A DNA stretch of 64,000 bases from Alphaproteobacteria bacterium (GCA_963665325.3 CAXXWS020000002.1:416001-480000); one strand, 5' to 3'. Counted from the stretch's first letter, positions 38,123-61,627 are shown. The notes: a model not told the origin generated them from the letters alone. Numbers and translations are program-made.

Positions 38123-38214
38123 GGTACCCGACCGACGCATTCGGAAGATTCGTCAACGAAGCACGTTCGAGGGAGACGGTATTCGCCCGTCATGACGAGG
38201 TCAAGGGGACATCG

Positions 38215-38382: not shown

Positions 38383-38948
38383 GCGCTGGGTCGGTGGAGC
38401 GGCGCATTTTTCCGCCGCTGCCGGGTTCTCCGTAACTCGATGGAAACACGAGGGTTTTCCAACGCCGGTCTGAACGCCTGCGGATCGGTTCCGAAGAGGC
38501 CTTCCCCGAACCCGTCCGGGAAGCGCAAGCGCCGTCCTCGCACTGGCCGGGCCCGGGACGCGGTCGGTAATCATGCGGGCTTTCCCAAGGGCATGCGCCC
38601 CAGGGAGGCCGTCCACCGCGTGAAAAACGAGGTCACGGCAGCCGGCACCGGACGGTGCCGGAACCGCGAGGGCGCGGTCGGGCTGCCCGCCTTCAGGCTC
38701 TTCCCTGTCCACGAATCGGACTGCCTTGCCGGCAGCCGTGCCTTGGTCCGGAGCTCCACGAGCAAGACGGACGGGAGGTTCGGACGGAGTGTCCGGAAGG
38801 TCCGGAAACGCGAAAATGTGCTGCGGCGGATTAGCGCAGCTTTGCCCAATGACTCTCCGGACTGCGCCCGCACAAGAAGGAAGGGCGCCATCGGCCTCGA
38901 CGGGCTGGACGTGTCCGGCGGCAGTCCCGCTGACGAGGGGGCCGCGCG

Positions 38949-45091: not shown

Positions 45092-46147
45092 ATGGCCCGA
45101 AGACGCCACATGGAGCGCGATGCCGCCATCAGCCGCGCCGTCGCTGCCGGCCAGAGCGTCCGCTCCATTGCCGTCGACTACGACCTCGCCGTCTCGACGG
45201 TCTACGGCATCACCCGCCGCGAGGGCTGGACGTTCCATAACGGCCCGAGGCAGAAGCCCGGCTTCTGCGCTCGCGGCTGCTGCCCGCGTCCCCTGCCGCG
45301 CCCGCGCAACCGCTTCTGCAGCCATGAGTGTTTCGTGGCCTGGCGCCGGGCCCATCTTCCCGTCTGCCCCGGATGCGGAGGCAGGGTCGGGCGCCTCTCC
45401 TCCAAGTTCTGCTCGCGCCTCTGCTACCGGCTCTGGCTCCGGGACCGCTGGGCCGAAATCAACGAGGACCGCGACTGCCGCATCCTCATGGAAGCACGGT
45501 CCGGGAGGCCGCTGGCGCGGATCGCCGCCTTCCACGGCGTCAGCCACAGGACGGTCTCGAAGGTCGTCAACGGCCATCGGCAGGAAGACGGCGCCGTTTG
45601 CTCGGCTCCCGGCTGCCAGGCTCCGCTCCCACGGCGCCGGCTGCGTTTCTGCAGCGCCTCCTGCCGCCGGGCCTGGAACGAGGCACAGAGGCCGCCCTGC
45701 GCGAACGGTTGCGGCGCCCGCGCCAGCCGGCGCTCGGGTCGGTTCTGCGGCTCGCGCTGCCATGCCGCTCATGCCGCAGGCGAGGCCCGCCGGCGCAATC
45801 TCGTCCGCGACACATTCATGGTCCTCGCCGCGGCCGCCGGCGTGCCGCCCGCGGAGATCGCGCTCCGGACCGGCCTCAGCAAAGGCTATGTCTCGCAGAT
45901 CGTCCGCCGCCGCGACCGCCGTCTTCTTTCCGCCCCCGATCGCAAGGAGTCCGTCAGCATGTCCAGCATGCACATCCTGCCCGACGACCCCGACTGCCCG
46001 GATTGCGGCGCCCGCATGTGGAGCCGCACCGCACCCCGGACGAGGGAGTGCCAGGCATGCGGGTTCGTCCAGCATCTCGAGACGCTCGAAGAGAACGCAG
46101 AGCGTCTCCAGCGCGAAATCGACGCCGAAATCGCAAGCGGTGCCTGA
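45092..46147 (+). CDS. HTH plus FCS-type zinc-finger repeat protein
   Basis: Three HTH-like segments and four C..C...FC(S/G)..C motifs; C-terminal CPDC/CQAC ribbon. Confidence 0.65.
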   Translation: MARRRHMERDAAISRAVAAGQSVRSIAVDYDLAVSTVYGITRREGWTFHNGPRQKPGFCARGCCPRPLPRPRNRFCSHECFVAWRRAHLPVCPGCGGRVGRLSSKFCSRLCYRLWLRDRWAEINEDRDCRILMEARSGRPLARIAAFHGVSHRTVSKVVNGHRQEDGAVCSAPGCQAPLPRRRLRFCSASCRRAWNEAQRPPCANGCGARASRRSGRFCGSRCHAAHAAGEARRRNLVRDTFMVLAAAAGVPPAEIALRTGLSKGYVSQIVRRRDRRLLSAPDRKESVSMSSMHILPDDPDCPDCGARMWSRTAPRTRECQACGFVQHLETLEENAERLQREIDAEIASGA

Positions 46148-47132: not shown

Positions 47133-47234
47133 GTGCGTCTTGCCGGCTATGCCCCGAAGGAACGCCGCAGCCCGTTGCCGCCCCGCGCGCGCGGGGCCAG
47201 AGCGTCCCGTCTTTCGAAACCCGAAGGACGGGAC

Positions 47235-48824
47235 ATGACAACGGACGGCTCCCCGATCGCGCGCTTCGCGATCTATGCGCGCTATTCTTCCCCCTTGCAG
47301 GAGATGACCTCGATCGCAGGCCAGCTCCGCCTCTGCCGCGACCGCGTCGCCACTCTGGGCGGCGTGATCGCGGACGAATACACCGACCCGGAGCTTTCGG
47401 GCACGGCCATGCAGTTGCGCCCGGGGCTCCGGCAGCTGATCGAGGACGCCCGCGCGAGACGGTTCGACGCCGTCTACGTCGAAGCTCTCGACCGGCTCGC
47501 CAGGAGCCAGGCCGACATGACTTGGCTCTATCGGGAGCTCCGGTTCCTGGGGATCGACCTGTACAGCCTGGAGGACGGGCAGGTCGACGCCCTGCATGCC
47601 GGCATCAAGGCAATAGTGAGCGAGATGTTCATCGAAAATATCGGCAACAAGACGCGCCGCGGCCAGATCGAGGCCGTGCATGATCTTCGCCTCATCGGGT
47701 CCAGCGTCTATGGCTACAGGATCGCCAACCGCATCGACGAGAGCGGGAAGCCTGTCCGCGGGCTGCGGACCGTCGAACCCGGGGAAGCGGAGGTCGTGCG
47801 GCGCATCTACCGGCTCTATCTGGACGGCATGAGCCCCACCCAGATCGTCCGCCTGCTCGACCGGGAAGACGTGCCCGGCCCGGACGGGGAACCCTGGACG
47901 GTCCGCACCGTGCGCGGCACCAGCCAGAACGGCATCCTGCGCAACGAGATCTATTGCGGGCGGCTGATATACGGGCGCACCCGCAGCCGGCGCCATCCGG
48001 ACACCGGGCGGCGCCATTTCGATGCCGTCCCCCGCGAGCAATGGACCATTACCGAGGCGCCGGAGCTGCGCATCGTCGACGAGGAGACCTTTCAGGCCGT
48101 CCAGGACGAGGTGCAGCGCCGCCGCCGCCGCCACCACGCCGTGGTGACGCCGCAGCGCAAGGCGGCCTATCCGCTGACCGCCAGGGTCCGCTGCGGCCTT
48201 TGCGGCTCGCACATGATCATTGCGGACAGGAACACCTATCGCTGCGTGACCCGCCGGCGCGACCCGGAGAGCTGCAACAACGGCCGCGGCATCCTGCTGG
48301 AGGACCTGGAGGATAGTGCCGCCCGGCAGCTCTTCGGCTGGCTGCTGTCCCGCGACCGCGACTGGCAGGACATGTTCGCGGCCGCCGGGCGCGAGAACGC
48401 CGGGCGCCGCCGCATCCTCCAGGAGCGGGCCGGGGACGCCACCGACGGGATCGGCCGCCTGCTCGCCGTGATCGAAAGCGGCATCCCCTCGACCAGCATC
48501 GGCGACCGGGTTCTCGAGCTTGAGCGCGCCCGCAACGAAGCGTTAGCAGAACTGGAGCGAATGCCGGAACCGCCGCCGCCCGCCAGTTTCGACGTCAGGG
48601 CGTTCATGCGCGGGCGCGTCGCCGAGTTCCGGCGCGCCGTCGCCGGTAGCGCGCGGACCGACCGGCGCGAGCAGGTGCTGCTCGTCCTCCGCGACCTGAT
48701 CGCCCATATCGAGGTGCGCCCGTCCGACGGCCCCGAACGGGTCGAGGTGGAGACGGCCCCCGACATCCCGGCGATCGTCGAGATGATTTCGCGCCATGCC
48801 GCCGCCGGCGAACGCGGCGCATGA
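47235..48824 (+). CDS. Large serine recombinase
   Basis: IYARYSS, RPGL, DRLARS, YGY recombinase domain, CGLCG...YRC...C zinc ribbon. Confidence 0.92.
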   Translation: MTTDGSPIARFAIYARYSSPLQEMTSIAGQLRLCRDRVATLGGVIADEYTDPELSGTAMQLRPGLRQLIEDARARRFDAVYVEALDRLARSQADMTWLYRELRFLGIDLYSLEDGQVDALHAGIKAIVSEMFIENIGNKTRRGQIEAVHDLRLIGSSVYGYRIANRIDESGKPVRGLRTVEPGEAEVVRRIYRLYLDGMSPTQIVRLLDREDVPGPDGEPWTVRTVRGTSQNGILRNEIYCGRLIYGRTRSRRHPDTGRRHFDAVPREQWTITEAPELRIVDEETFQAVQDEVQRRRRRHHAVVTPQRKAAYPLTARVRCGLCGSHMIIADRNTYRCVTRRRDPESCNNGRGILLEDLEDSAARQLFGWLLSRDRDWQDMFAAAGRENAGRRRILQERAGDATDGIGRLLAVIESGIPSTSIGDRVLELERARNEALAELERMPEPPPPASFDVRAFMRGRVAEFRRAVAGSARTDRREQVLLVLRDLIAHIEVRPSDGPERVEVETAPDIPAIVEMISRHAAAGERGA

Positions 48825-48938: not shown

Positions 48939-49307
48939 ATGTCCAACGTCATCCCGATCGAGCCATACCTGTGGGACCAGGACGCGTCCGAATATCTGTA
49001 TCCGGACGAGGACTTCCACGAATACGACTACGAGCCGCTGCCCGAGCCGGTGCCGGTCTACGAGCCGCGCCCGAAGACCTACGACCTCCAGAAGCTCTCC
49101 GAGCTCACCGCAAAGCTCGGGCGGGAGTCCGGCTTCAATCTCGGCATCGACGAGACCGCGGTCGAGGCCGCCTTCCACTTCGCGAAGGAGCAGGCCGGGC
49201 GCATGGAGGTCCCGCTGGAGCAGGCGCTGGAGATCGCGGGCTGGGCCATTCTCAACTACGAGCGCGGGCGCCGCGACCCGGAACTCTACAGGATCCGGCC
49301 GTTCTGA
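48939..49307 (+). CDS. Acidic hypothetical protein
   Basis: AGGAGG RBS; D/E/Y/P-rich N-terminus. Confidence 0.7.
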   Translation: MSNVIPIEPYLWDQDASEYLYPDEDFHEYDYEPLPEPVPVYEPRPKTYDLQKLSELTAKLGRESGFNLGIDETAVEAAFHFAKEQAGRMEVPLEQALEIAGWAILNYERGRRDPELYRIRPF

Positions 49308-49418
49308 AGCGCCGCCAACCATAACCTCCTCGCCGCGCCGCCGGTCGCTGCCCCGGCAACCCCGGAGCCGGAAATGTCCGGGGCGCCTCGGGAGGGCCAG
49401 GAAGAGGGAGGCGGCGCC

Positions 49419-50447
49419 ATGCGTGGCGATCCAGCGCCAACACACAGCCTGAAGGACCTGAACGCCTTGCTGGCGGCCGATATCGAGGCCGTTTGCCGAC
49501 ATTACCTTCCGAACGGGAAGCGCAACGGCAACTACTGGCAGGTGGGCAGCACCGCCGGCGAGGAGGGCGCCTCGCTGCGCATCAACCTGTCCGGGCGCTG
49601 GCGTGGACGCTGGAGGGACTGGGCCAACCCGAAGGACCGGGGCAGCCCCCTCGACCTGATCCGCGCCGTGCGCAACTACGCCAGCATCGGGGAAGCGGCC
49701 GCCGAGGTGCGCCGCTACCTGGCGCTTCCGGCATATGAGCGGCCCCGGTGCGGTCCCCGCCGCCCGGACGGCGCGCCGGAGGCGCAGACGGGCCTGGAAC
49801 GGGTGCTCGAGGGCGCGAAGACGATCGGGGCAGACGACCCGGCCGGGCGTTATCTCGCCTCGCGCGGCCTCGCCATAGAGGACGCCCGCGCCGCCGGGCT
49901 GCGCTTCCGCCCCGACACCTGGGTCCAGGTGGACGGCAAGAAATGCGAGCTGCCGGCCCTGCTCGCGCCGATCCGCGCGCTCGACGGCACGCTGGAGGGC
50001 CTGCAGCGGATATTCCTCGCCCCGGACGGAAGCAAGGCCTCGATCCCGGACCCGAAACGGACCAGCGGGCGGCTCTTCTCCGGCGCCGTGCGCTGGCCCA
50101 TGTCCGGGGCGAGCCGCATGGTGCTGACCGAGGGGATCGAGGACGCGCTCGCCGTCATAAGGGCACTCGGCGCCGGCCGGCCTCACGATATCGCCGTCGC
50201 GGCCGCGATCTCCGCCGGGCGCGTCCACCGCGTCGGCCTCTCCCCGGACATCCGGCGCGTGACGCTCGTCCAGGACCGCGACATGGCGGGCGAACAGGCA
50301 TGGGTCGCACTCTGCCGCGAGCATGGAGGCTCCGCCCTGCTGCTCGACCGGATCATTCCCGGCAAGAAGGACGCCAATGACGAGCTCCTCGCGCTCGGCC
50401 CCGCCGGGTTCCTGGCGAGGCTCGCGGCCCAGGGACTGTCCGGCTGA
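49419..50447 (+). CDS. Toprim-domain primase-like protein, paralog 1
   Basis: YLPNG...GRWRDWA; YLASRGL; TEGIEDAL; QDRD; KDAND. Confidence 0.82.
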   Translation: MRGDPAPTHSLKDLNALLAADIEAVCRHYLPNGKRNGNYWQVGSTAGEEGASLRINLSGRWRGRWRDWANPKDRGSPLDLIRAVRNYASIGEAAAEVRRYLALPAYERPRCGPRRPDGAPEAQTGLERVLEGAKTIGADDPAGRYLASRGLAIEDARAAGLRFRPDTWVQVDGKKCELPALLAPIRALDGTLEGLQRIFLAPDGSKASIPDPKRTSGRLFSGAVRWPMSGASRMVLTEGIEDALAVIRALGAGRPHDIAVAAAISAGRVHRVGLSPDIRRVTLVQDRDMAGEQAWVALCREHGGSALLLDRIIPGKKDANDELLALGPAGFLARLAAQGLSG

Positions 50448-50618
50448 CACGGGGGCTGCAGGGCCACCGCCGCGCACGCCGCAGCCCTCCCGCCGGCGCC
50501 TCCGTTCCCGGCCGGCCGCCGGAAGTTGGGGAAGGGGTTGCCGAGGTATCGATGCGGGCGCGGCTTGCTTCCGGCCCGTTCCGATCCCATACTCCCCAAC
50601 GGACAGGAGACGAGGCAC

Positions 50619-51161
50619 ATGACCTCTCCCGAAACCCCTTCCCCGGAACCGCAGCGCAGCATGTTCGGCATCGGTGACGGCAGCTGGAAGGCGATGATCC
50701 CGGCCGCCACCGTGCTCACCTTTTTCGTGCTCTTTCTGGTCGGGATACTCGGCTGGTTCGACAGTCGCATCGACGGGGTCGAAATGCGCCTGACCGCCCA
50801 GATCGTCGAGGTGAAGGCGGATCTGACGAACCGGATTGATGAGGTTAAGGCAGACCTCAGAGCAACCGAGACTCGCCTGTCCGACCGGATCGACCGGGTC
50901 GAGACTCGCCTGTCGGACCGGATCGACCGGGTAGAGACCGATCTCGGCACCCGCATCGACGGGGTGAAGGCGGAACTGGCTGCGAGCGAGGCGCGCCGCG
51001 CGGCCGTGGATGCGCAGCTTTCCGCCGATATCGAGCAGGTCTCCGCCGGTGTCGCGGAGAACCGGGCCGCGCATCGCGAGCTCGCCGGCTTCGTGCGCGC
51101 CAGCCGCTCGCAGGAGCCGCCTCCGGCGAGCGACCGGCCGGGTCCCGCACCGCCGCAGTAG
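50619..51161 (+). CDS. Membrane-anchored coiled-coil protein with 11-aa repeats
   Basis: One TM helix, then ETRLSDRIDRV x2 (33-bp tandem repeat 50868-50933); AGGAG RBS. Confidence 0.75.
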   Translation: MTSPETPSPEPQRSMFGIGDGSWKAMIPAATVLTFFVLFLVGILGWFDSRIDGVEMRLTAQIVEVKADLTNRIDEVKADLRATETRLSDRIDRVETRLSDRIDRVETDLGTRIDGVKAELAASEARRAAVDAQLSADIEQVSAGVAENRAAHRELAGFVRASRSQEPPPASDRPGPAPPQ

Positions 51162-51287
51162 CCGCACGCACCCCATAGCCGGCGCCGTTTTCGCCCCTTC
51201 CCGGCCCAAGGTCGGGAAGGGGTTTTTCGTGGCGATCCGCGCGGGCCGTCCTGTTCGCGCGTCCCTCCACGACAGGAGACGCTGCCC

Positions 51288-52580
51288 ATGCCCGGCGCGC
51301 CGGCTTCCGTCCCTCGCGACACGCATCAACCCGCCGAAGCGGCGGACTGCAACTGCAACAGCGGCAAGTCCGCGGACGCTACGCCGCCCGTCCGTTCATA
51401 TTCCTGGCACGCGCGGCGCCGGCTCGCCACGCGCGGCCTCTGCCTGAACTGCGGCCAGGTGCCCCCGGCGGACGGCGCGAAATACTGCTCCGGCTGCATC
51501 GAGCGCCGCCGCGCCAGCGACCGCAAGGCCGCCCGCAAACGCCGCCTGCTGCGCCGTAACCGCGGCCTCTGCGCAGAGTGCGGCGCCGTGGCCGAAAAGC
51601 CCCGCCAGCGGCTCTGCGAGGCCTGCAACGACAAACACCGGGCCGTGAGCCGCCGGCGCCAGCAAGACCGAAAGGAAGAACGGAAGCGGGCAGGCCTGTG
51701 CGTACAGTGCGGAGGCAGGGCGCCGGCCGAAGGCAATGCGAGCTGCGACGACTGCCTCGCCCAGCGCCGGCTGGCATACCGCGTCCGCATCGACCGCCGC
51801 CGGCGCCAGGGCGACCGTTCGCTCTGCATCGAGTGCGGCAAGGCGCCCCCGGCTCCCGGCCGCCGCCGCTGCCCGGACTGCCAGCCGCTCACCGCCGGGC
51901 GCGACAGGGACGCCGCCAGACACCGCCGGGAGGCCCGCCGCTCTGTCGGCCTCTGCACAGTCTGCGGGCAGCATTCCGCCGTCCGCGGACGCACGGCCTG
52001 CGAGGCCTGCCTCGCGGGCTGGCTTGACCAGTACAACCGCAAGACCCTGGCCCGCGTCGCGCAAGGCCTTTGCATCCGGTGCGGGAAAGAGCCCCCGGCA
52101 ACCGGGTTCACCGCGTGCGAGCCCTGCCGGGACAGCCACCGCGCCGCCAGTCTTGCGAAGTGGCGCCGGCGCACTGCCGAACGCCGCGCCATGCAGCGCT
52201 GCATACGCTGCGGCGAGGATCTCGCCGACGGGGAGCAGGAGGTCTGCGAGCCCTGCCGCGACACCCAGCGCCTGAGCGCGCGCCGGCGTGCCGACCGCCG
52301 CAAGGCGCTGGGCGTCTGCGTTCGCTGCGGGCGGCGCCCCGCCGGGCGAGGAGCGCGCGACTGCGGCCCCTGCCGCGACCGCCAGCGCGCCTACGCCTGG
52401 CGCGGCATGCCCGACCTGCCGCCCCGCTACACCGTGATCGAGATCGCCACCGGCACCGATCACGGCACCTGGGAAACCGTCCAGGAGGTCGCGGGCGCGC
52501 TCGCCTATGCGAAGCTGACGCTCGACGACGTCGAGATCCTGACCGACGCCGCGCCCATGGCCGCCTTCAGGAGCTGGTGA
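51288..52580 (+). CDS. Tandem C4 zinc-finger repeat protein 1 (8 repeats plus conserved C-terminal domain)
   Basis: 8x GLCxxCG-x11-CxxC plus Arg-rich helix; AGGAG RBS. Confidence 0.85.
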   Translation: MPGAPASVPRDTHQPAEAADCNCNSGKSADATPPVRSYSWHARRRLATRGLCLNCGQVPPADGAKYCSGCIERRRASDRKAARKRRLLRRNRGLCAECGAVAEKPRQRLCEACNDKHRAVSRRRQQDRKEERKRAGLCVQCGGRAPAEGNASCDDCLAQRRLAYRVRIDRRRRQGDRSLCIECGKAPPAPGRRRCPDCQPLTAGRDRDAARHRREARRSVGLCTVCGQHSAVRGRTACEACLAGWLDQYNRKTLARVAQGLCIRCGKEPPATGFTACEPCRDSHRAASLAKWRRRTAERRAMQRCIRCGEDLADGEQEVCEPCRDTQRLSARRRADRRKALGVCVRCGRRPAGRGARDCGPCRDRQRAYAWRGMPDLPPRYTVIEIATGTDHGTWETVQEVAGALAYAKLTLDDVEILTDAAPMAAFRSW

Positions 52581-52715
52581 CGCCGCCTCGCATCCCCTTC
52601 CCGGTCCCCGGCAGCCGCAACGCCGCCAAGGTCGGGAAGGGGTTGTTCGTGCGATCCGCGCGGGTCCGCCATTGGCAACCGCCCGCGCCCGTTTCCCGAT
52701 CAGGAGATATCGCAC

Positions 52716-53027
52716 ATGCCCGGCATGCCCGTTTCCGTCCTTCGCCCCGATGCGAACACCTTTCTGACGCACGTCTTCGGCCGCGGCCTCCAGGACAAGA
52801 CCTATGTGGTCGAGCGCTACCGCACCGGCATCGACGGCGAGATCCGGCGCCTGCCGGGCGGCAGGGGCCATCCGCTCACCCTCTCGCTGGCGACCGTCCG
52901 GGAGCTGCGCCCGGCGCGCAACGAGATCCTGATCTGCCGGTGCGAGAAAAAGCCGGACTCCGGCATCCAGTACTGGGGGGTGTGGGCGACCGGGCTCTTC
53001 GCGGAGGGCAGGCGCAAGGGGCGCTGA
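52716..53027 (+). CDS. Hypothetical protein
   Basis: AGGAG RBS, GC3-biased, preceded by the motif. Confidence 0.7.
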   Translation: MPGMPVSVLRPDANTFLTHVFGRGLQDKTYVVERYRTGIDGEIRRLPGGRGHPLTLSLATVRELRPARNEILICRCEKKPDSGIQYWGVWATGLFAEGRRKGR

Positions 53028-53137
53028 GGCGTTCACGCTCCGGCGCCTCGGTTCTCCCCTTCCCGGTCAGCAAGGTCGGGAAGGGGTTTTTCCTTCCGAA
53101 CCCGCCGTCGCTCGCTTTCCAGTCGTCAGGATCCGCC

Positions 53138-54322
53138 ATGGCACCGAGCCGCACCACCCAGCTGCGCCACGCCCGCCGCGAGGCAGGCCTTTGCCAGGAA
53201 TGCGGACAGGTCCCCCCGGAGGGCAACTCCACGCACTGCGCCGCTTGCAGCCAGCGCCGGCGCGAAAACAGGCGCCGGTCCCAGCAAAAGCGCCGCATGC
53301 GTCTTCGCGAACGCCTGCTCTGCCTGGACTGTGCCAAAGCCGCGCCCGAGCCTGGCCGCGCCCGTTGCTCTTCCTGCGCCGAAACGCACCGCACCGCCAC
53401 CAGGCACACCAACCGGCTCCTCCGCGAAACCCGGCTCAAGGCCGGCCTCTGCCGCCAATGCGGCCAGAAGCCTGCGGCGCCCGGCAATGCCACCTGCGAC
53501 GACTGCCTTGCCGCGCGCCGCCAAGCCTACCGCGCCAGCACCGCCAGGAAACGCCGCCGCACTGACCCCTCTGTCTGCCTTGACTGCGGCAACAACTCTG
53601 CGGCCCCCGGCAAACCCCGTTGCCCCGCATGTGTTCGTCTCGCCGCCAGGGCCCTCCGCGACCGGCTCCGCGCGGCCGGCATCTGCACAACGTGTACGGC
53701 ACGCCCCGTCACCGACGGTCACACCACCTGCGGTCACTGCCGGGACGCCAATCTCGCCTGGTTTCACCGCGAACAGGGCCGCCGCAAATCCGAAGGCCTC
53801 TGCCGCAAGTGCGGGCAGCAACCTCCCCTTGCGGGATTCACGCTCTGCCTGCCATGCCGCGAGAAGAGCCGCTTCGCTGGCCATGCGACCTGGGTCCGGC
53901 AAACGACGGAACGCCTGACATGCGGGTTATGCGTGCGTTGCGGGCAACATCCCGCTGCGGAGGGCGTCCGTGAATGTCCCGCTTGCCGTGAATACTCCCG
54001 CTCACGGGCGCTGGCCTATTACCGCCGAACGTCGTCCGAACGAAAGGCGCTGGGCCTTTGCGTCCGTTGCGGCAGGCGGCCCCCCGAACGCGGCACGCTC
54101 GACTGCGGTCCCTGTGGCGACAAGCAGCGCGCCCGCGAGTATCGCGGCATGCCCGACCTGCCCGACCGGTACACCCTGATCGAGATCGCGACCGGAACCG
54201 ATCACGGCACCTGGGACAACCTCCAGGAAGTCGCGGGCGCGCTGGCCTACGCGAAGCTCACGCTCGACGACGTCGAGATCGTCACCGACGCCGGGCCCAT
54301 GGCCGCCTTCAGGAGCTGGTGA
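53138..54322 (+). CDS. Tandem C4 zinc-finger repeat protein 2 (8 repeats plus conserved C-terminal domain)
   Basis: Paralog of 51288-52580; true start probably MAPSRTT after the motif. Confidence 0.85.
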   Translation: MAPSRTTQLRHARREAGLCQECGQVPPEGNSTHCAACSQRRRENRRRSQQKRRMRLRERLLCLDCAKAAPEPGRARCSSCAETHRTATRHTNRLLRETRLKAGLCRQCGQKPAAPGNATCDDCLAARRQAYRASTARKRRRTDPSVCLDCGNNSAAPGKPRCPACVRLAARALRDRLRAAGICTTCTARPVTDGHTTCGHCRDANLAWFHREQGRRKSEGLCRKCGQQPPLAGFTLCLPCREKSRFAGHATWVRQTTERLTCGLCVRCGQHPAAEGVRECPACREYSRSRALAYYRRTSSERKALGLCVRCGRRPPERGTLDCGPCGDKQRAREYRGMPDLPDRYTLIEIATGTDHGTWDNLQEVAGALAYAKLTLDDVEIVTDAGPMAAFRSW

Positions 54323-54426
54323 CGCCGGCCCCATCCCCTTCCCGCCCCGGCAGCCGCATGGCCGCCAAAGGTCGGGAAGGGGCTTGTCGAGGGTGACTGC
54401 AAACAGCCACCCGGAGGACATATCCG

Positions 54427-54693
54427 ATGCCCGAGCCCGCCCCCTCGATGCGCACGTTCCGGATCGACGGAATCGGCCATGCCGGCGAGACCCTCGACAC
54501 CTGGTTCGTCGAGGCCCCCTGTTCCCGGCAGGCGCTGTCCCGCCTCTCCGAGAGCCTGGCGGACCGCGCCGAAACCGCCGGCTGGCGCCTCTACACGCTC
54601 CAGTACTGCGCCGATATCCGCATCGACGAAGTCGACGCCGCGCTGGCGTCCCCCGGCGCTGCCGCCTATATTCCGCAACAGGGAGTCGCCTGA
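54427..54693 (+). CDS. Hypothetical protein
   Basis: GGAGG RBS, preceded by the motif. Confidence 0.7.
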   Translation: MPEPAPSMRTFRIDGIGHAGETLDTWFVEAPCSRQALSRLSESLADRAETAGWRLYTLQYCADIRIDEVDAALASPGAAAYIPQQGVA

Positions 54694-54696
54694 TCC

Positions 54697-55065
54697 ATGG
54701 CCATGACCGCATTCGAAACCGCCACGCTGGCATTCCAGAAGGCGACCGTCGCTTTCCAGGAATCCACCATGCGGTTCCAGGAATCCACTATCGGATTCCA
54801 GAACGCTTCCCTCGAGCTGCAACGCGACGGTCTCTATCTCCAGGAGGCCGCCATCTACGTCCAGGCCGGCGTCGGCCTTCTTCAGGCTGCCCTGATCGGC
54901 TACGGGCTCTGGATGATGCACCGCGCGTCCACGGACCGGAACCGCCTCATGGACGAAGAACGTGTTCGCGCCGATCGGCGACATGAGGAAGCCATGACCG
55001 CCCTCAAGGAGCTGATCGCGCGCACGGCGTCCCCCTCCTCTCCTCCCGGCGCCAGCGCCGCTTGA
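54697..55065 (+). CDS. Heptad-repeat membrane protein
   Basis: AFETATL/AFQKATV/AFQESTM/RFQESTI/GFQNASL, then a TM helix. Confidence 0.65.
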   Translation: MAMTAFETATLAFQKATVAFQESTMRFQESTIGFQNASLELQRDGLYLQEAAIYVQAGVGLLQAALIGYGLWMMHRASTDRNRLMDEERVRADRRHEEAMTALKELIARTASPSSPPGASAA

Positions 55066-55198
55066 CCCGCCGGGCGTTCTTCGCCCCGCATCTCCTTCCC
55101 TTCCTGCCCGTTCCCGGCCGCTGCGGCATTCACGCCGCAAAGGTCGGGGACGGGTTTTTCGGGTGGTGCCAACCAGTTCCACCGAAAGGGCTTGAGCG

Positions 55199-55552
55199 AT
55201 GCAGCACATGAACGAGACCATCCGCAGCGTGCTGGCCGCGCACGGCATCGAGCGAAGATTCGCTGTCCTGCTCGCGGACCACGCAAGCAGCAATTTCAAC
55301 GAGCATTCCTACCTGGTCGAGTGGCCGGGCGAGCTCGGCGGCGCGCTCGTCTACCGGAGCGAGGAGGCCTGGCGAGCCGCCGCGGGCGACGACGCCTCCT
55401 GCTTCGACCTCTGGCCCTGGGCCGTCGAGGAAGTCTGCACCGATTACATGTACGCGGCGATGTACGAGGCCGGAATGTTCGACGAACACGGCGAGGTGGC
55501 GGAGGACTGCCCCCAGCGCGAAGCGGCGATCCAACTCTGCCTGGGCAACTGA
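55199..55552 (+). CDS. Acidic hypothetical protein
   Basis: GC3-biased ORF preceded by the motif. Confidence 0.7.
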   Translation: MQHMNETIRSVLAAHGIERRFAVLLADHASSNFNEHSYLVEWPGELGGALVYRSEEAWRAAAGDDASCFDLWPWAVEEVCTDYMYAAMYEAGMFDEHGEVAEDCPQREAAIQLCLGN

Positions 55553-55682
55553 CCGGTCCGGCATTCCGGTCGGCGCTTCCCCATCCCCGGCCTTTGCGGC
55601 ATCGACGCTGCGAAGGTGGGGAAGGGGCTTTTCGCGGTGAGTTCGAGCAACTCGCAATCAACCAGTTGCAGGGAGCAACACC

Positions 55683-56102
55683 ATGAACGGCCTGAACCGC
55701 GTCGACCTGATCGGCAACCTCGGCGGCAACCCCGAGATCCGGACCATGCAGAACAGCAGCGAGGTCGCCAATTTCTCCATCGCCACCAACGAGGTCTACA
55801 AGGACCGCCAGACCGGCGAGTACAAGGAGCTCACCGAGTGGCACCGGATCGTCGTCTACCAGCAGGGTCTCATCGACATGCTGAAGAAGCACGGCGAGAA
55901 GGGCCGCCTGGCGCACATCACCGGCAAGCTGCGCACCCGCAAGTGGACGGACCGCGACGGCAACGACCGCTACTCCACCGAGATCGTGGTCGGCCCCCGC
56001 GGCTGCATCAACTTCCTCGACCCCAAGCGGGACGGGGCGGGGAACGGAAACCGTCCGCCGGCGCCGCCCCCGGAAGCCTATCAGGACGATTTCGCCGCCT
56101 GA
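55683..56102 (+). CDS. ssb: Single-stranded DNA-binding protein
   Basis: NRVDLIGNLG.NPEIR, TEWHRIV, GKLRTRKW.DRDG.DRYSTEIV. Confidence 0.95.
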   Translation: MNGLNRVDLIGNLGGNPEIRTMQNSSEVANFSIATNEVYKDRQTGEYKELTEWHRIVVYQQGLIDMLKKHGEKGRLAHITGKLRTRKWTDRDGNDRYSTEIVVGPRGCINFLDPKRDGAGNGNRPPAPPPEAYQDDFAA

Positions 56103-56115
56103 GCGAACGCCCCCC

Positions 56116-56150
56116 AGCCCCGGAACCCGAGGGTTCCGGGGCTTCTTCCT
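56116..56150 (+). terminator. Intrinsic terminator after ssb
   Basis: AGCCCCGGAACCC/GGGTTCCGGGGCT followed by TCTTCCT. Confidence 0.7.
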
Positions 56151-56406
56151 TGTACGCTCAGCAACGTCCCGGGGCCCGCCTCGGCGCGTTTTTTCGTTGC
56201 CCCCGTCCGCGGGTCCCCCGCACTTCGGTGACCTCCGTCTTCCCGGGCTGGGCCCGGAAGGGATGGCGGAACGCGGCCGCTCTTTGCTGATCGCCGGAGC
56301 GCCGCCCCGGTCCGGAGAAGGTGGGGAAGGGGTTTTCCGGGCGGCATTGCGGGCCTCGCTCCTGCTTGCCCTCGTGCTACAATCCCCCACAGAAAGGAGC
56401 TGCACC

Positions 56407-56664
56407 ATGACCGCAGCCGATCTCGCCCCCTGGACAACGCCCGCGATCACCATCGCCCTCATCGCCTGGCTCCGCATGGACCTCGGCAAGCGCATCGACC
56501 GTCTCGAGGAGCGAATGGACCGGCGCATCGACGGCATCAACGCGCGTCTCCGTGCCCTGGAAATCGCCGTCGGCGCCATGGCGGCCAAGCTCGACCTGCT
56601 CGAGCGCTACTTCCTGCGGCCGAACGAGCCTCTCGACAAGCCGTCCCCGGAAGCGTCCGAGTAG
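56407..56664 (+). CDS. Small membrane-anchored coiled-coil protein
   Basis: AAGGAG RBS; short TM, then RIDRLEERMDRRID. Confidence 0.7.
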   Translation: MTAADLAPWTTPAITIALIAWLRMDLGKRIDRLEERMDRRIDGINARLRALEIAVGAMAAKLDLLERYFLRPNEPLDKPSPEASE

Positions 56665-56674
56665 CTTCCCCCTG

Positions 56675-56700
56675 ACCCCGGCCTCCGCGCCGGGGTTTTT
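56675..56700 (+). terminator. Intrinsic terminator
   Basis: ACCCCGGC/GCCGGGGT followed by TTTT. Confidence 0.65.
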
Positions 56701-56945
56701 CCATTCCGACGATCCAGCGCCTCGGGCCCCGCCCCCGGGGCGCTTTTTCGTGCCCCCGTTCCCGGCCTGCCCGTACTGCCGGGCGTCCCGCATGCCGGGC
56801 GCTGGCCGGGAAGCGTTCTGTGCGGCCGGCCGTCGCCCATCAGCCGCCGTCGTGCCGGCCGCGAGGCAAGAAAGGTGGGGAAGGGGTCTGTCGGGCGGTA
56901 TCGCGGCCATCCCGGTCGCGACCGCAGCCCGAAAGGATTTTCGGA

Positions 56946-57122
56946 ATGACCGTTCTGCTGGACCTCGCCTTCGACGCGATCGACGATCGCCACGCCGTCG
57001 CCGAGCTCGGACTCGATGCGCTCCCCCTCCGCGACAGCGTCCTGGAGGACAGCCTGCCCCGCTGGGGAGACCAGGCGACCCTGTTCCCCTGGGAGCCCGA
57101 TACCGCCGGAGACGCCGGCTGA
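56946..57122 (+). CDS. Small acidic hypothetical protein (58 aa)
   Basis: AAGGA RBS, preceded by the motif. Confidence 0.55.
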   Translation: MTVLLDLAFDAIDDRHAVAELGLDALPLRDSVLEDSLPRWGDQATLFPWEPDTAGDAG

Positions 57123-57747
57123 ACCCTGTCGCCCCGATGCCCCCCGGCGTCGGGGCGATCGTTCTGTACCGGCTCACCGCCGCGGCCCCCCGGTCCGTGC
57201 CTATATGCCTGCCGGCAGTCGCTTCGCTCCGGTAGCGGCATCGTGGGCGGGGATGGCCGGTCCGGAGCCGGGCCGCATCGAACCCGCCGTCCGGTCGCAG
57301 GCTCCCTCCCGTCACGTCCGCTGCTGACCGCCCGGTTCCAGACCGGCTGCGGGGACGCCGGGCCGCGACCGCCGCGCCGGGCGGGCTTCGCCCTTCCCCC
57401 CGTCACGCCGCCCGCTTGAGGCCCGGCTTGAATCTGAAATCGACACCCTCGCTGCGCTCGCCCGGCGCAGGCGCCGGATGAGGGCCGCTTCGCGCCCTGG
57501 CGGAGCGTGCTGCGCACGCGGGAGGCCGGTCGTGGCCTTCGGCATGCCGGGGGCGCTGCGCTGTGACCCCCCGGCAGGCCGAAAGCCGTTGGTGGGGGGC
57601 AGGGGCAGCCGGAGGCATGGCGGCATGGGGAGACCTGGAAATGCAACCCGCGACCTCGGGCAGGCCTGGAAAAGGTGGGGAAGGGGTTGTTCGGGTGGAT
57701 TCGCGGCCAATCCGGTCGGCGACGGTGATCCGGAAGGAGGATCGGTC

Positions 57748-58776
57748 ATGGCGGTCATGCATGGAGGCATTTCGCTGCAGGAGCTGGCAGCGCGGCTGGC
57801 GACCGAGATCGAGGCGGTCTGCGCCTACTATCTGCCGAACGGCCGGCGTGACGGCCCGTTCTGGCAGGTGGGCAGCGTCGCGGGCGAGCCCGGCAGCTCG
57901 CTGCGCGTCAATCTGGCGGGCCGGCTGCGCGGGCGCTGGAAGGACTGGGCGAACGGGCGGGATCGCGGCGACGCGCTGGACCTGATCCGCGCGGCCCGGG
58001 ACCTGGCGTCGGTCGGCGAGGCCGCGAAGGAGGCCCGGCGCTTCCTGTCCCTGCCCGATGCCGAGCGCCCGGCTTCGGTCGTGTCCGTTGCGGCATGCCG
58101 GCCGGTGAACCGGGCGGGCCTGGAGCAGGTGCTGGCCCGTTCGCGCGCGATCTGCGCCGACGACCCGGCCGGGCGCTATCTCGCCTCGCGCGGGCTGGCG
58201 GTGGACGACGCGCGGGACGCCGGCCTGCGGTTCCGGCCCGACGCCTGGGTGCAGGTGGACGGGCAGAAGCTGGAACTGCCGGCCCTGCTGGCGCCGATCC
58301 GCGCGCCGGACGGGACGCTGGAGGGCCTGCAGCGCATCTTCCTCGCCCCGGACGGCGGGAAGGCGGCGATCGCGGACCCGAAGCGGACCAGCGGGCGGCT
58401 CCACTCCGGCGCCGTGTGGTGGCCTGCTGCCGACGATGCGCGGCACGTGGTGCTGACCGAGGGCGTGGAGGACGCGCTCGCGGTCCGCCGGGCCCTGGGC
58501 GCGCATGGCCGCCGGCATATCGCCATCGCGGCTGCCGTGTCCGCCGGGCGCATCCCGCAGGTCGCCCTGCCGCCCGGCACGGTGCGGGTCACGCTGGTGC
58601 AGGATCGGGACCGCGCGGGCGAGGAGGCCTGGGCCGCGCTGGTCAACAGGCATGCCGGCCCGGATGTGCTGGTCGGGCGCCTCGTCGCCGGCGCGAAGGA
58701 TGCGAATGACGACCTCCTCCGGCTCGGCCCCGCCGGATATCGCCGGCTGCTGCTCTGCGGGGGCCTGCCGGCCTGA
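57748..58776 (+). CDS. Toprim-domain primase-like protein, paralog 2
   Basis: Colinear with 49419-50447 (TEGVEDAL, QDRD, KDAND); AAGGAGG RBS. Confidence 0.82.
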   Translation: MAVMHGGISLQELAARLATEIEAVCAYYLPNGRRDGPFWQVGSVAGEPGSSLRVNLAGRLRGRWKDWANGRDRGDALDLIRAARDLASVGEAAKEARRFLSLPDAERPASVVSVAACRPVNRAGLEQVLARSRAICADDPAGRYLASRGLAVDDARDAGLRFRPDAWVQVDGQKLELPALLAPIRAPDGTLEGLQRIFLAPDGGKAAIADPKRTSGRLHSGAVWWPAADDARHVVLTEGVEDALAVRRALGAHGRRHIAIAAAVSAGRIPQVALPPGTVRVTLVQDRDRAGEEAWAALVNRHAGPDVLVGRLVAGAKDANDDLLRLGPAGYRRLLLCGGLPA

Positions 58777-59008
58777 GCCACGATGCCCGGCGCCATCGGC
58801 GTCGGGCATCTGTTGCGTACCGGTCCGGGGCGCAGTTGGCGCCGGCCCCGCCGCGCCGTGGCGGTGGATGGCCGCGGAACGGGCCTGGAAGGGAATGGCG
58901 GGGCGTTCGGGGGATTTCGGCTGCCCGTACGCGCCGGGGCCGGCCGATGCGGCCGGGAGAAAGGTGGGGAAGGGGCTGTTGGGGTAAATCCCGAACAGGA
59001 GAGAGACG

Positions 59009-59266
59009 ATGAACGGCGACGCATACTGGACCGTGGACATCCTGCTGCCCTACTACACCGGCGGGCAGCGCTGGCGGGTCGTGCATGGCGGCGGGAGCGA
59101 GCAGCTCGCCCGGCGCATGCTGGACGCGGAGCGCCGGAACGGCAACCGCGCGCGCCTGCGCTGCTGGACAGCCGAGGTCGTGGACGCCGATGAGGTGCAA
59201 GACCTCGCCGAAGCGGTCCCCGTTCCTCAGCCTGCCGACCGGCTGGACAACGCGGTCCCCTTCTGA
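59009..59266 (+). CDS. Hypothetical protein ending in ...DNAVPF
   Basis: AGGAG RBS, preceded by the motif. Confidence 0.7.
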   Translation: MNGDAYWTVDILLPYYTGGQRWRVVHGGGSEQLARRMLDAERRNGNRARLRCWTAEVVDADEVQDLAEAVPVPQPADRLDNAVPF

Positions 59267-59273
59267 AGCAGAG

Positions 59274-59306
59274 AGCCCCGGCGCCTCCGGCGCCGGGGCT
59301 TCTTCT
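59274..59306 (+). terminator. Intrinsic terminator
   Basis: AGCCCCGGCGCC/GGCGCCGGGGCT followed by TCTTCT. Confidence 0.7.
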
Positions 59307-59587
59307 ATGTACCGCTCCGGCGGCCTCCTCCCGGGCGGCCGGGAGACCGGCTCCGCTATCCGGAACCCTGGCGGGGCCTCCGCAGGCTCCGGCCCCGCCA
59401 GGAACCCGGAAGACTGCGCCTGGAAGTTCCTCCTGACGGCGACGTCTGGCGCAAGCGCCAGGTCGCTTCGCTCCCGGGCCGGGAAGGAGGAATGCTGTCG
59501 GCCGGCGCTTCGGCGGCGAAATCCAAAAGGTAGGGAAGGGGTTGTTCGGGTGGAATTGCGGTCAATCCCGGCCGCGATCGCGAAGAG

Positions 59588-59932
59588 ATGGAGACAGCGA
59601 TGTCGATTCCCGCCAACCGGGCCCTCGTGCCGTTCCGCCCGTTCCTGATCGTCCGCGTGGCCGAGTTCGATGACGAGCCCGCCGAGATCCGCACCGCTGC
59701 CAGCCGCGAGGACTGCGAGCGCGCCCTGTTCGACTGGATCGAGGAGAGCGTCGTCCCCAACGAGATCTCCGGCGGGTCCTTCAATCCCGGTGAGGGCTGT
59801 TACACCTTCGCCGCCAGTGAATATGGCGAGCTTCGCCACCAGCGGACCGAACGCCCGGACGGAGGCTGCCACTTCGGTCCCTGGGCCGAAGAAGCCCGTC
59901 CCGCCGCCGGCAACGACCCGTGGCCGTTCTGA
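59588..59932 (+). CDS. Acidic hypothetical protein ending in ...NDPWPF
   Basis: Preceded by the motif; possible alternative start at 59600. Confidence 0.7.
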   Translation: METAMSIPANRALVPFRPFLIVRVAEFDDEPAEIRTAASREDCERALFDWIEESVVPNEISGGSFNPGEGCYTFAASEYGELRHQRTERPDGGCHFGPWAEEARPAAGNDPWPF

Positions 59933-59940
59933 TCCCGATC

Positions 59941-59970
59941 GCCCGGCGCCGAAAGGCGTCGGGCTTTCTT
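59941..59970 (+). terminator. Intrinsic terminator closing the motif-regulated array
   Basis: GCCCGGCGCC-GAAA-GGCGTCGGGC followed by TTTCTT. Confidence 0.7.
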
Positions 59971-60139
59971 CATGTTGCGGTCGCCGGGACGGCTCGCCCT
60001 CAACGCTGCGTTGCGCCCCGTCCGGCTCCCGCATTACCTGCCGGAGCCCGGGGTTTCCTGCCGATTGTCCGGCCCGCACCCCGCTTCACCCATCGGGGCC
60101 CCTTGCGCCGATCCGCGCCGCTGCCCTATCCTTCGCTCA

Positions 60140-60370
60140 TGAGGTATGCCCTGGAGAATGTCGAGAAAATAGGTTGGCACACCTGTGCACCCAGGTGCAA
60201 TTCAAACTATCAACAATTTCAACGACTTATCCGGTCGATGAAATTCGGAAGGCGCGGCACACGGAACCCGGAGGACCAGCCGCCCGGTGGATGTATCCGG
60301 GGAGCACCGATCGCATGCTCCGATCGGCCATTCCTGCGCTTGCCTGTTACGTGAACACTGGGCCCTGACG
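60140..60370. other. Candidate oriT/relaxase promoter region
   Basis: AT-richer non-coding stretch directly upstream of the relaxases; inverted repeat CACCTG..CAGGTG near 60178-60197; nic site not identified. Confidence 0.4.
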
Positions 60371-61627
60371 ATGGTAGCGAGGATCACCAAACTGACGAAA
60401 CCGGACCTCTATGCCGGACGCAGGGCGCCCTGGACCGGCAAATGGCGCAACCCGTCAGGCCTGCTGCATCTCGCGGACGGCGGCGCCGTTTCCGACAGGG
60501 ACTTCCTTTCCCTGTGGAGGGGGTTCGCGCCCGGAGACGGCTGGCCCCTGTCGCGCCGCGCCCTCAGCCGGACCCACATGCCCGGCTTCGACATCGTGCT
60601 CTCGCCCGACAAGTCGATCTCGGCGCTCTGGGCCATCTCTCCGGAGTTCGACCGCAAGCGCATCGAGCGCACGGTCATGGACGCGGCCGGGATCGCGATC
60701 ACCCGCACGGTCTTCCGGCATTGCGCTGTCACCCGGGCCGGTACGTCCGGCAGGAATTTTCAGGTTGAGACCGGCGACATCCTGGTCGCGATCTTCCCGT
60801 TCCACATCTCCCGCGAACTCGATCCGCAACTGGACGTCAGCTGCGCCATCTTCAATTTGGTGCAGACGCACCGGGACCTGAGGTTCCGGACCCTGCACGC
60901 CTATCCCCTGTATTCCTGGCAGAAGGCCATCGGCGCCACTTTCCGGAGCCGTTTGGCGTATCGGTTGCGCAGCCGCCTCAGCATCGGGATGGAACGGCAT
61001 GGCGAGCAAGGCGAATACACCCGCATCCGGTGCATGGACCCCGGCCTCGAAGAGTTCTGGAGCAAACGGAAATCAAAGTTGTTGGCCAGTCGGGCAAGGA
61101 AGACAATGCCCGACCCGACATCCCTCCACGGCGCCCAATCATCGAGTGCGCCTCTGCGGATCAAACGCACGGCGATCGACGCTGACACGGCCAGGTTCAG
61201 GGATGAAGCAGCCGCATTCGTCGATCCCGATGCCCTGCATACACGGATCGTCCGGTCCGCATCCAATGACGTGACTGAACGCCAGCACGACAGCGTCCGC
61301 CGGGAGATCGACGACATTCCCCGCACGCTCGCCGCGTCGGACCTGGTCTTCAACACGGCCGACATCGTCGCCCGGGTGGAGAACGCCGCCGGCGGCCTGT
61401 TCGACGACGACGCCATGGACGGGTGGCTCGAATTCGCCCTGGCCGCCGACAACCTGCTCCCGCTGGACCATGAAGACCCGAACCCCGACGCCGTCGCCGG
61501 CATGGCCCACAAGCGCCTGTTCACGACCCGTGACATCCTGGACGCCAACCCGGATCACAAGCGGCTTTCCGGCCTCAGAGTTGCGCCTCTACAGCCGGAA
61601 GCACCCACGGAGCCTTCGCGGTGGTAG
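60371..61627 (+). CDS. Degenerate MobF/TrwC relaxase-domain protein (predicted catalytically inactive)
   Basis: PGFDIVLSPDKSISALWA; SRELDPQLDVS in place of SREGDPQLHVH; YY..YY cluster absent; no helicase. Confidence 0.8.
   Translation: MVARITKLTKPDLYAGRRAPWTGKWRNPSGLLHLADGGAVSDRDFLSLWRGFAPGDGWPLSRRALSRTHMPGFDIVLSPDKSISALWAISPEFDRKRIERTVMDAAGIAITRTVFRHCAVTRAGTSGRNFQVETGDILVAIFPFHISRELDPQLDVSCAIFNLVQTHRDLRFRTLHAYPLYSWQKAIGATFRSRLAYRLRSRLSIGMERHGEQGEYTRIRCMDPGLEEFWSKRKSKLLASRARKTMPDPTSLHGAQSSSAPLRIKRTAIDADTARFRDEAAAFVDPDALHTRIVRSASNDVTERQHDSVRREIDDIPRTLAASDLVFNTADIVARVENAAGGLFDDDAMDGWLEFALAADNLLPLDHEDPNPDAVAGMAHKRLFTTRDILDANPDHKRLSGLRVAPLQPEAPTEPSRW

Follow-up and report, generated by a model that had tools for sequence, protein, structure and literature searches.

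In a 64,000-nt stretch of DNA from an Alphaproteobacteria bacterium (GCA_963665325.3, CAXXWS020000002.1:416001-480000; hereafter the window), an integrated mobile element carries an array of 13 open reading frames (ORFs, g1 to g13; 50502..59970) next to two TrwC/MOBF relaxase genes, and 12 of these ORFs are preceded by a copy of one conserved block. We favour, with modest confidence, the view that this block is the shared promoter/operator core of insulated units, analogous to the ArdK/CUP or Reg576 regulons, a view that is derived from sequence comparison. The anatomy of the block, its conservation, the covariation of its hairpins and its link to gene starts and relaxases are directly supported by the data described below.

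Searching for the core AAGGTSGGGAAGGGG with up to two mismatches gave 12 matches in the 64,000 bases, all on the + strand. By dinucleotide shuffles 0.24 copies are expected; the largest number seen was 2, and 0 of 100 shuffles reached 12. Eight copies match the core exactly, two have one mismatch, one has two mismatches, and the copy at 59527 carries an A at the S position. A repeat-family search, which is independent of the pattern, returned a direct-repeat family of 12 copies and 26 nt at the same sites. To these we added a model (R1) that was built from 55 copies in other genomes and none from the window. Applied to both strands with filters off, R1 placed its top 12 matches at the same 12 sites (E 6e-11 to 0.013; next match E 0.08), and neither the pattern search nor R1 found a copy in the other 54 kb of the window. 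The three approaches thus return the 12 intergenic + strand copies of the initial annotation, which had seen the motif nowhere else in the window. The longer flanks that it had described for some pairs were recovered as well, with 87% identity over 53 nt for 57670 and 59525 in the repeat search, and with flank similarity (repeat families D2 and D4) for 51206 and 52626. At the positions orthologous to the weakest copy (copy 1, Table 1), two related loci (L033 and L020) have a perfect core.

All 12 copies are intergenic, and the motif ends 33-81 nt before an ATG; the position upstream of start codons had been noted before, with figures of 34-82 bp that are corrected here. The one array ORF without its own copy is g6 (54697-55065), as expected from the earlier count of 12 in 13. 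This ORF starts 4 nt past the stop codon of g5 (54427-54693) and is therefore the second gene of a two-gene unit, so that the copies number one per transcription unit and not one per gene.

Relatives of the array were collected by a scan with a 20-nt pattern over one genome per species, in which at least 115 tiles were listed. At least 16 tiles, from seven assemblies named 'Alphaproteobacteria bacterium' (metagenome-assembled genomes of uncultured bacteria), contain two or more copies on the same strand, and these 16 tiles are homologous to the window with 65-93% DNA identity (blastn, tblastn). The other 99 tiles hold single matches, stem from many phyla and fit the model only over the 20 nt used for selection. 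All multi-copy sites among the fetched tiles are homologous arrays with a common layout: serine recombinase, orf122, the first Toprim gene (Toprim1), the array, an oriT-like repeat and two TrwC relaxase genes. This differs from REP/BIME repeats, since the rest of the window is free of copies and the multi-copy tiles are all homologous arrays. Neither a REP-like scatter nor a loss of the link to gene starts, each of which had been named as speaking against a regulatory array, was seen in the window and the fetched tiles.

Over 15 loci (14 fetched loci and the window), 70 ORFs with a Shine-Dalgarno sequence follow a copy at a distance of 33-103 nt, never of less than 33 nt; the 68 copies that were kept for statistics have distances of 33-101 nt. 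The profile of these 68 copies reveals a conserved unit of about 32 nt (-1 to +31), A-AAGGTSGGGAAGGGG-YTKTYC-GGG-nn-RAWTY. The core had thus been recognised correctly in the initial annotation, and the conserved unit is longer than noted there. The information profile is bipartite and consists of the core and an A/T-rich triplet 13-15 nt past it (positions 28-30; A/T in 45-53 of 68 copies versus 31% background). The G-rich half of the block contains a direct repeat, AAGG-N5-AAGG. Purines prevail in the core, which is Shine-Dalgarno-like in appearance. The T-rich segment is conserved in all copies, and the conserved block continues 16 nt beyond it.

In 177 pairs of orthologous units, the block is 84.5% identical, compared to 70% for the 40 nt upstream, 79% for the leader and 82% for the first 120 nt of the coding sequence. 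Non-orthologous units share the block alone (74% versus a baseline of 51-57%). Likewise, two non-homologous cassettes are found upstream of the Toprim gene, and the block is their sole common part.

Hairpin-forming copies, armless copies and terminator-like hairpins

The copies fall into two classes. In 27 of 68 copies (about 40%) the core forms the 3′ arm of a long hairpin, and the same is true for 6 of the 12 copies in the window (51208, 52628, 53072, 54368, 55140 and 55613). Stabilities of -31 to -43 kcal/mol were calculated for these structures. The six window hairpins, two of which came from a generic terminator scan and four from folding, begin 13-42 nt past the upstream stop codon and are followed by the T tract. 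The tract had been described before; what had been missed is that it is partly a terminator tail and that half of the window copies are 3′ arms.

Of the 10 core bases that deviate from the consensus in 25 hairpins, 9 are compensated by the pairing partner, and the S position covaries with the arm, as seen in per-sequence folds, which favour pairing; an alignment of the 25 hairpins by MAFFT and RNAalifold had register shifts. The hairpin of copy 6 (55107-55154) is an example, as its 5′ arm has a compensating change for the core GGGGACGGG. In 19 of 25 hairpins the base opposite T5 is G. Read in the + sense this pair is a wobble, on the minus strand it becomes an A-C mismatch, and the + sense fold is the more stable one in 16 of 25 (mean -37.4 versus -35.0 kcal/mol). 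Because the wobble is available only in the + sense and the + fold is more stable, the hairpins look like + sense RNA terminators of the upstream gene. With known intrinsic terminators they have in common a GC-rich hairpin plus T tract, the compensatory changes and the position shortly past a stop codon. Unlike in such terminators, the 3′ arm is invariant and common to all units, and it persists without a 5′ arm in 41 copies, always before a gene.

The folds assign these 41 of 68 copies to the hairpin-free class. When the 700 nt upstream of 34 hairpin-free copies were searched for an arm, 29 gave no match and 5 gave only matches with 2 mismatches at 88-310 nt. Armless copies are as conserved as coding sequence, and they are kept at orthologous positions in up to 8 loci with 85% identity of the block and diverging flanks. 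Whether a copy has a hairpin or not tracks the gene family.

In the window, separate and unrelated terminator hairpins precede the five oriT-proximal copies at distances of 185-550 nt. The stop codon of Toprim1 is 76 nt before copy 1 (50523), and the scan detected no terminator there. In total, the generic scan yielded 20 terminator-like hairpins versus 5.5 expected, and every unit ends in one. Every unit is thus insulated and consists of block, leader, ORF and terminator.

Setting of the array and orientation towards the oriT-like repeat

The first 37.8 kb of the window contain ordinary metabolic genes. At the boundary between chromosome and element, an ORF for an isocitrate/isopropylmalate dehydrogenase is truncated (37763-38473; profile positions 2-108 of 348), and it may represent the integration junction of the serine recombinase. 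The element genes that follow after 38473 encode a DnaA_N-domain protein, ParA-like and ParB-like proteins, DUF5131, a protein with several helix-turn-helix (HTH) domains (about 45100-46147) and an SNase-domain protein. The tandem relaxase pair is conserved in L016, L113 and L057, and L065 has a single long relaxase ORF.

The 354 nt ahead of the first relaxase gene contain an inverted repeat, which is the oriT-like repeat. Six loci conserve it, a double compensatory change is seen in L065, and a flank of 8-10 nt is conserved on its left side only. MOBF sites have a conserved single-stranded stretch and a nick 3′ of the repeat. From the left-side-only flank and this analogy we place the likely nick on the minus strand, in which case the array would enter the recipient first and the transferred strand (T-strand) would be the template for all units. 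All units are co-oriented towards the oriT-like repeat, which fits a leading region. The orientation had been read in this way before, and the covariation of the repeat and its one-sided flank now add to it. The region is best explained as the leading end, transferred first, of an integrated element of the MOBF type that is conjugative or mobilizable.

Readings of the block

Since every unit ends in a terminator-like hairpin and the five oriT-proximal units lie 185-550 nt beyond terminators, each unit needs a promoter of its own. The promoter/operator reading is based on three further points: no sequence other than the block is common to all units, the DNA upstream of it is least conserved and differs between units, and a generic consensus scan (49500-61000) detected no sigma-70-like promoter and no -35/-10 pairs. 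No ATG is found less than 33 nt past a copy, a distance that can just accommodate a start site plus a Shine-Dalgarno sequence and that also favours this reading. The same applies to the armless copies, which have no partner arm, so that the block is independent of the hairpin.

According to this model, each unit would be composed, in this order, of the 32-nt block, a short leader with a Shine-Dalgarno sequence, the ORF and a terminator hairpin. The invariant G-rich half would be recognised by a factor with sequence specificity, either a repressor or activator encoded by the element or a dedicated sigma factor, and the transcription start would lie about 20-25 nt past the core, beyond the fixed AT-rich triplet. 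The 12 units would form one establishment regulon, encoding SSB, a primase-like Toprim protein and small acidic proteins, that fires together after entry into the recipient, as in the ArdK and Reg576 systems. In tightly packed units the G-rich core and the T tract would be reused at the RNA level: the core would pair with a C-rich arm just past the upstream stop codon to give the intrinsic terminator of the upstream gene. Promoter/operator activity, the regulator and the timing of firing are what we infer here. Of the establishment regulon proposed in the initial annotation, the real, conserved and relaxase-adjacent array stands; the regulon function would follow from this model, and no regulator was found in the scans described below.

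The closest parallels are repressor systems of plasmids. In PMC9723621, ArdK is described to repress five promoters of R388, including Pssb, via a conserved direct repeat at the -35 box, and in PMC6289460 the CUP elements are ArdK sites in IncN. As in these accounts of ArdK/CUP (IncW R388, IncN pKM101), a short conserved sequence is placed upstream of several leading genes including ssb, near oriT, and the same arrangement is seen in 14 related loci. The AAGG-N5-AAGG repeat is a further likeness to the direct repeat reported for the R388 operators. The block is, however, unrelated in sequence, G-rich and without a TTGACA-like hexamer or an adjacent sigma-70 -35 box. In addition, there are 12 units instead of about 5, the element is integrated in uncultured Alphaproteobacteria, and half of the copies are also terminator arms. 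According to PMC6294495, Reg576 (p576/pLS20, Bacillus) represses four establishment promoters via a repeated heptamer. A repeated operator, a repressor encoded by the element and transient de-repression after transfer are what that account shares with our model. Its operator is a dual TTATCCC heptamer and its ribbon-helix-helix repressor is encoded among the regulated genes; here no ribbon-helix-helix protein was recognised, and host phylum and relaxase family differ.

Several observations weigh against the promoter/operator reading. Judged by eye, the block fits no promoter consensus (sigma-70, sigma-54, sigma-28 or ECF geometry), and the AT-rich triplet lacks the A-11/T-7 pattern of a -10 hexamer. 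When the 13 array proteins and 21 neighbouring ORFs were scanned against Pfam and NCBIfam, no HTH or ribbon-helix-helix family was matched save for the multi-HTH protein, and the same scans gave no KorA/ArdK-like match among the scanned window proteins; the element continues beyond the window, and a protein of novel fold might escape such scans. Moreover, copies without a hairpin also conserve the T-rich segment, for which a pure promoter model has no need. Conservation of the block could partly reflect common descent or gene conversion among copies and not selection. Finally, the evidence for restriction to such arrays covers the window and the fetched tiles.

Other candidates for the factor or the signal were considered and rejected. 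The multi-HTH protein was detected in only 1 of 3 other loci that cover its position, which does not suit a cognate regulator, and g12 is unlikely to be a repressor as it is acidic and has an SSB-tail-like end. As a LexA (alphaproteobacterial) or PhoB pattern, again fitted by eye, the block gave no convincing fit. Copies with C at the S position do not have four G runs, which disfavours a G-quadruplex.

An RNA-level leader element is an unlikely alternative to the promoter/operator reading. Transcription would start upstream, and the block would act within the mRNA as a regulated terminator (attenuation or antitermination on a long transcript), as a processing or stabilising site, or as the site of an RNA-binding protein or small RNA. 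The stable + sense hairpins of 27 copies with their U tract, compensatory changes and G-U wobbles would suit such a role, and so would the T tract in all copies and the Shine-Dalgarno-like core. The 41 hairpin-free copies do not fit it, nor do the five oriT-proximal copies behind separate terminators and long spacers. The 40 nt upstream of the block are its least conserved neighbourhood and are non-homologous between units, so that no shared promoter is located there. Furthermore, when three leader families were folded as alignments, covariation was scarce and no common structure past the core emerged, and Rfam gave no match.

We regard it as rather improbable that the block acts on ssDNA, with initiation on the incoming T-strand. 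Either the host RNA polymerase, in a Frpo-like manner, or Toprim primase-like proteins would start at the complement of the block, and each gene would be transcribed or made duplex as soon as it enters. Copies on one strand within the first ~10 kb next to oriT are in line with this, as is a cargo in which ssDNA and replication functions are frequent (SSB, two Toprim proteins and, in L080, a beta-clamp-like ORF). The inferred T-strand is the template for all units, which is the orientation reported for leading-region genes in PMC11541004. As outlined there, Frpo/ssi sequences (F-like and other enterobacterial plasmids) resemble the block in their leading-region location before ssb and anti-defence genes, their several copies and the T-strand template. 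Frpo is, however, a long imperfect hairpin that rebuilds canonical -35/-10 boxes; no such boxes and no hairpin of this type were found between 49500 and 61000. A hairpin is absent from 41 of 68 copies, and a consistent ssDNA structure is also missing: DNA-fold z-scores of five spacers ranged from +1.5 to -3.1 and were similar on both strands. The greater stability of the + sense folds and the A-C mismatch that replaces the T-G pair on the minus strand argue in the same direction. The likeness to a Frpo-type ssDNA promoter that had been suggested earlier was thus not seen in the scan or in the fold z-scores. That the block would be a strand-specific ssDNA start signal, used by the Toprim/DUF7146 proteins or by host RNA polymerase together with SSB for Frpo-independent, unit-by-unit priming, appears doubtful. 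If this were true, the element would have a modular solution that needs no Frpo and brings its own replication proteins as cargo, in which genes are expressed before the duplex is complete.

It is very unlikely that the block is a recombination site, that is, a site-specific or homologous substrate for gain, loss and reordering of units. Gene content and order do differ between elements (see below), upstream cassettes are swapped, and g2 and g3 have a common Shine-Dalgarno sequence and first ~10 codons. Of 65 homology breakpoints, 15 are within 40 nt of the motif centre, versus 9.7% expected. These breakpoints are intergenic, however, and among the 38 intergenic ones the 15 near the motif compare to 35% of intergenic positions, which means no enrichment. 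The proposal that the repeats let units be gained or lost is therefore not borne out. Integron attC arrays are similar in their short one-directional units, the recurring, partly palindromic site and the content that varies between relatives. In contrast to these, the site here is upstream of the gene and fixed to the start codon, and breakpoints are not concentrated. The 41 armless copies are asymmetric and without a palindromic core, and no IntI-type integrase or other integron-type tyrosine recombinase was found, the large serine recombinase being of the kind typical of element integration. A crossover site would require neither the strict link to the start codon nor a conserved downstream half.

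Least probable of all is a family of intrinsic terminators of which the motif is simply the 3′ half and the armless copies are decayed remnants: six window copies are indeed terminator-like hairpins right after stop codons, but the armless copies are kept across loci while their flanks diverge, are located far beyond other terminators and 33-90 nt before start codons, and share a conserved block that extends past the T tract.

Array genes, related loci and significance

The coordinates of the motif copies, the array genes and the neighbouring features are listed in Table 1.

Table 1. Features of the array and its surroundings (positions in the window).
Feature	Position	Strand	Remarks
Large serine recombinase	47133-48824		Resolvase + Recombinase + Zn_ribbon_recom
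Toprim1	49374..50447	+	first DUF7146+Toprim_3 gene; directly upstream of array; no own motif
Copy 1	50522..50553	+	upstream of g1; weakest, 1 core mismatch, 12.2 bits, E 0.013
g1	50619..51161	+	180-aa coiled-coil protein, hydrophobic N-terminal stretch; paralog of g9
Copy 2	51207..51238	+	upstream of g2; 3′ arm of hairpin 51193-51223
g2	51288..52580	+	430-aa basic protein, 16 CxxC (Zn-ribbon array 1); no family
Copy 3	52627..52658	+	upstream of g3; 3′ arm of hairpin 52594-52642
g3	52716..53027	+	103-aa basic protein; no family
Copy 4	53071..53102	+	upstream of g4; 3′ arm of hairpin 53056-53086
g4	53138..54322	+	394-aa paralog of g2, 16 CxxC (Zn-ribbon array 2)
Copy 5	54367..54398	+	upstream of g5-g6 unit; 3′ arm of hairpin 54335-54382
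g5 + g6	54427-54693 + 54697-55065	+	two genes behind one motif copy
Copy 6	55139..55170	+	core GGGGACGGG; upstream of g7; 3′ arm of hairpin 55107-55154
g7	55199..55552	+	117-aa acidic protein; no family
Copy 7	55612..55643	+	upstream of ssb; 3′ arm of hairpin 55579-55627
g8 (ssb)	55683..56102	+	SSB (Pfam)
Terminator-like hairpin	56116..56143	+	after ssb; generic scan
Copy 8	56317..56348	+	upstream of g9; no partner arm
g9	56407..56664	+	85-aa coiled-coil protein, hydrophobic N-terminal stretch
Terminator-like hairpins	56674-56697, 56716-56744, 59273-59301, 59941-59964		generic scan
Copy 9	56871..56902	+	upstream of g10; no partner arm
g10	56946..57122	+	58-aa acidic protein, pI 4.1; present in 8/8 loci covering position
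Further hairpins	about 57129-57158 and 58782-58810		by eye
Copy 10	57671..57702	+	upstream of second Toprim gene; no close partner arm; best score, 38.5 bits
g11	57748..58776	+	second DUF7146+Toprim_3 gene, primase-like
Copy 11	58960..58991	+	upstream of g12; shortest ATG distance, 33 nt
g12	59009..59266	+	85-aa protein, invariant C-terminal PF
Copy 12	59526..59557	+	upstream of g13; nearest to oriT-like repeat
g13	59600..59932	+	110-aa acidic protein
oriT-like site	60176..60199	-	inverted repeat TGCACC-CA-GGTGCA 60186-60199 + conserved flank 60176-85
TrwC/MOBF relaxase gene 1	60287-61627	+	relaxase domain only, no helicase part
TrwC/MOBF relaxase gene 2	61621-63999+	+	relaxase + helicase; runs off window

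Pfam assigns SSB, DUF7146+Toprim_3 and TrwC in this region, and within the array SSB and the second Toprim gene alone have families. This agrees with two of the functions named in the initial annotation, SSB and a primase (here primase-like); its zinc-finger arrays correspond to the Cys-rich pair g2 and g4, which has no family. For 9 of the 13 cargo proteins neither Pfam nor NCBIfam gave an assignment, save for weak sub-threshold coiled-coil or zinc-ribbon matches, so the cargo is indeed almost entirely uncharacterised. Searches of the ESM Atlas with g12 and g2 gave no named relatives. The g12 family comprises only 16 clusters among 5.8 billion proteins and thus belongs to a narrow lineage. 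Relatives of g11 are present on rhizobial and other plasmids in PLSDB, all less than 40% identical.

The paralogs g2 and g4 each have 16 CxxC motifs, equivalent to about eight zinc ribbons with Arg-rich linkers between them, and their last 287 nt are 85% identical (common C-terminal domain). The Shine-Dalgarno region and first ~10 codons of g2 (51273-51317) and g3 (52701-52745) are alike (78% over 45 nt, family D16), and the two genes are otherwise unrelated. This suggests exchange or duplication of modules made up of upstream region and N-terminus. From the hydrophobic N-terminal stretch, judged by eye, g1 and g9 are predicted to be located in the membrane.

Three small proteins have conspicuous C-terminal ends: g12 ends invariantly in ...IPF/VPF (17 sequences), g13 in PWPF and orf122 (48939-49307) in IRPF. 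The acidic C-terminal tip of bacterial SSB is DDDIPF. The SSB of the array ends in DDFAA. By their ends, g12, g13 and orf122 may be SSB-tail mimics that engage SSB-partner proteins. The protein g10 contains QATLF, similar to the consensus of the beta-clamp-binding pentapeptide.

Two further sequences in the leaders and spacers of the array are conserved. In the ssb leader, AATCAACCAGTTG (55650-55665) is conserved in 9 of 10 ssb leaders and fits WATCAANNNNTTR, the IHF consensus. A GC-rich stretch (CCCCCCGGCAGGCCGAAAGCCGTTGGTGGGGGG..., 57560-57620) in the spacer of 550 nt upstream of the second Toprim gene is conserved in six loci with varying surroundings, and an Rfam scan gave no match to it.

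The 70 ORFs downstream of the block belong to 16 families, of which 11 are common to several loci and 5 are singletons. Gene content and order vary between elements, as the initial annotation had anticipated; for example, a Zn-ribbon gene is placed before ssb in the window and after ssb in L016. L080 has an extra 1.1-kb unit (852-1950) that is absent from the window, with a 186-aa ORF and the beta-clamp-like ORF, a weak match to the central domain of the DNA polymerase III beta subunit (E 5.5e-6). Between the last array gene and the oriT-like repeat, the same locus carries about 25 tandem copies of an 11-nt sequence (GTCTGGTCAAA; 7473-7935), absent from the window and the other loci. In assembly OZ244041, three partial arrays (L046, L055, L083) keep the motif without an intact relaxase and hold a Zn-ribbon gene, a g3 homolog and ssb, or ssb alone; one of them adjoins an 80-aa TrwC fragment and ordinary metabolic genes. 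By their gene content, these partial arrays look like decayed copies of the element.

Searches outside these genomes returned little. In PLSDB, neither the whole array as query of a near search nor the second Zn-ribbon protein as query of a protein search gave a match, and a distant DNA search with 55500-60300 matched ssb coding sequence only. As a control, the ssb neighbourhood of a Roseomonas mucosa plasmid was inspected, which has neither the motif nor a comparable multi-copy intergenic repeat. An Rfam scan with E up to 5 gave four chance-level matches, none at the motif. A literature search with 13-mers of the motif retrieved only unrelated G-quadruplex and eukaryotic papers, and a search for this type of element retrieved only unrelated surveys.

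A repeated control sequence before leading-region genes is a known kind of system. The novelty lies in the sequence of the block, the host clade and the setting in an integrated element; further new traits are the size of the array (12 units), the additional use of the block as a terminator arm and the lack of canonical promoter boxes. Switching of genes immediately after transfer is understood for few plasmid groups, namely by Frpo (F-like), ArdK (IncN/IncW) and Reg576 (pLS20-like). The array described here adds a clean and highly modular case: in a MOBF element from uncultured Alphaproteobacteria, one 32-nt signal is repeated over 12 insulated units, and the block is short and specific enough to serve as a handle in searches for related elements in metagenomes. 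If the block is a promoter/operator, the array would represent a complete establishment regulon together with a list of candidate establishment or anti-defence genes, most of them without a known family. It would also reveal an economical design, in which one sequence is the operator for one gene and the terminator arm for the previous one.

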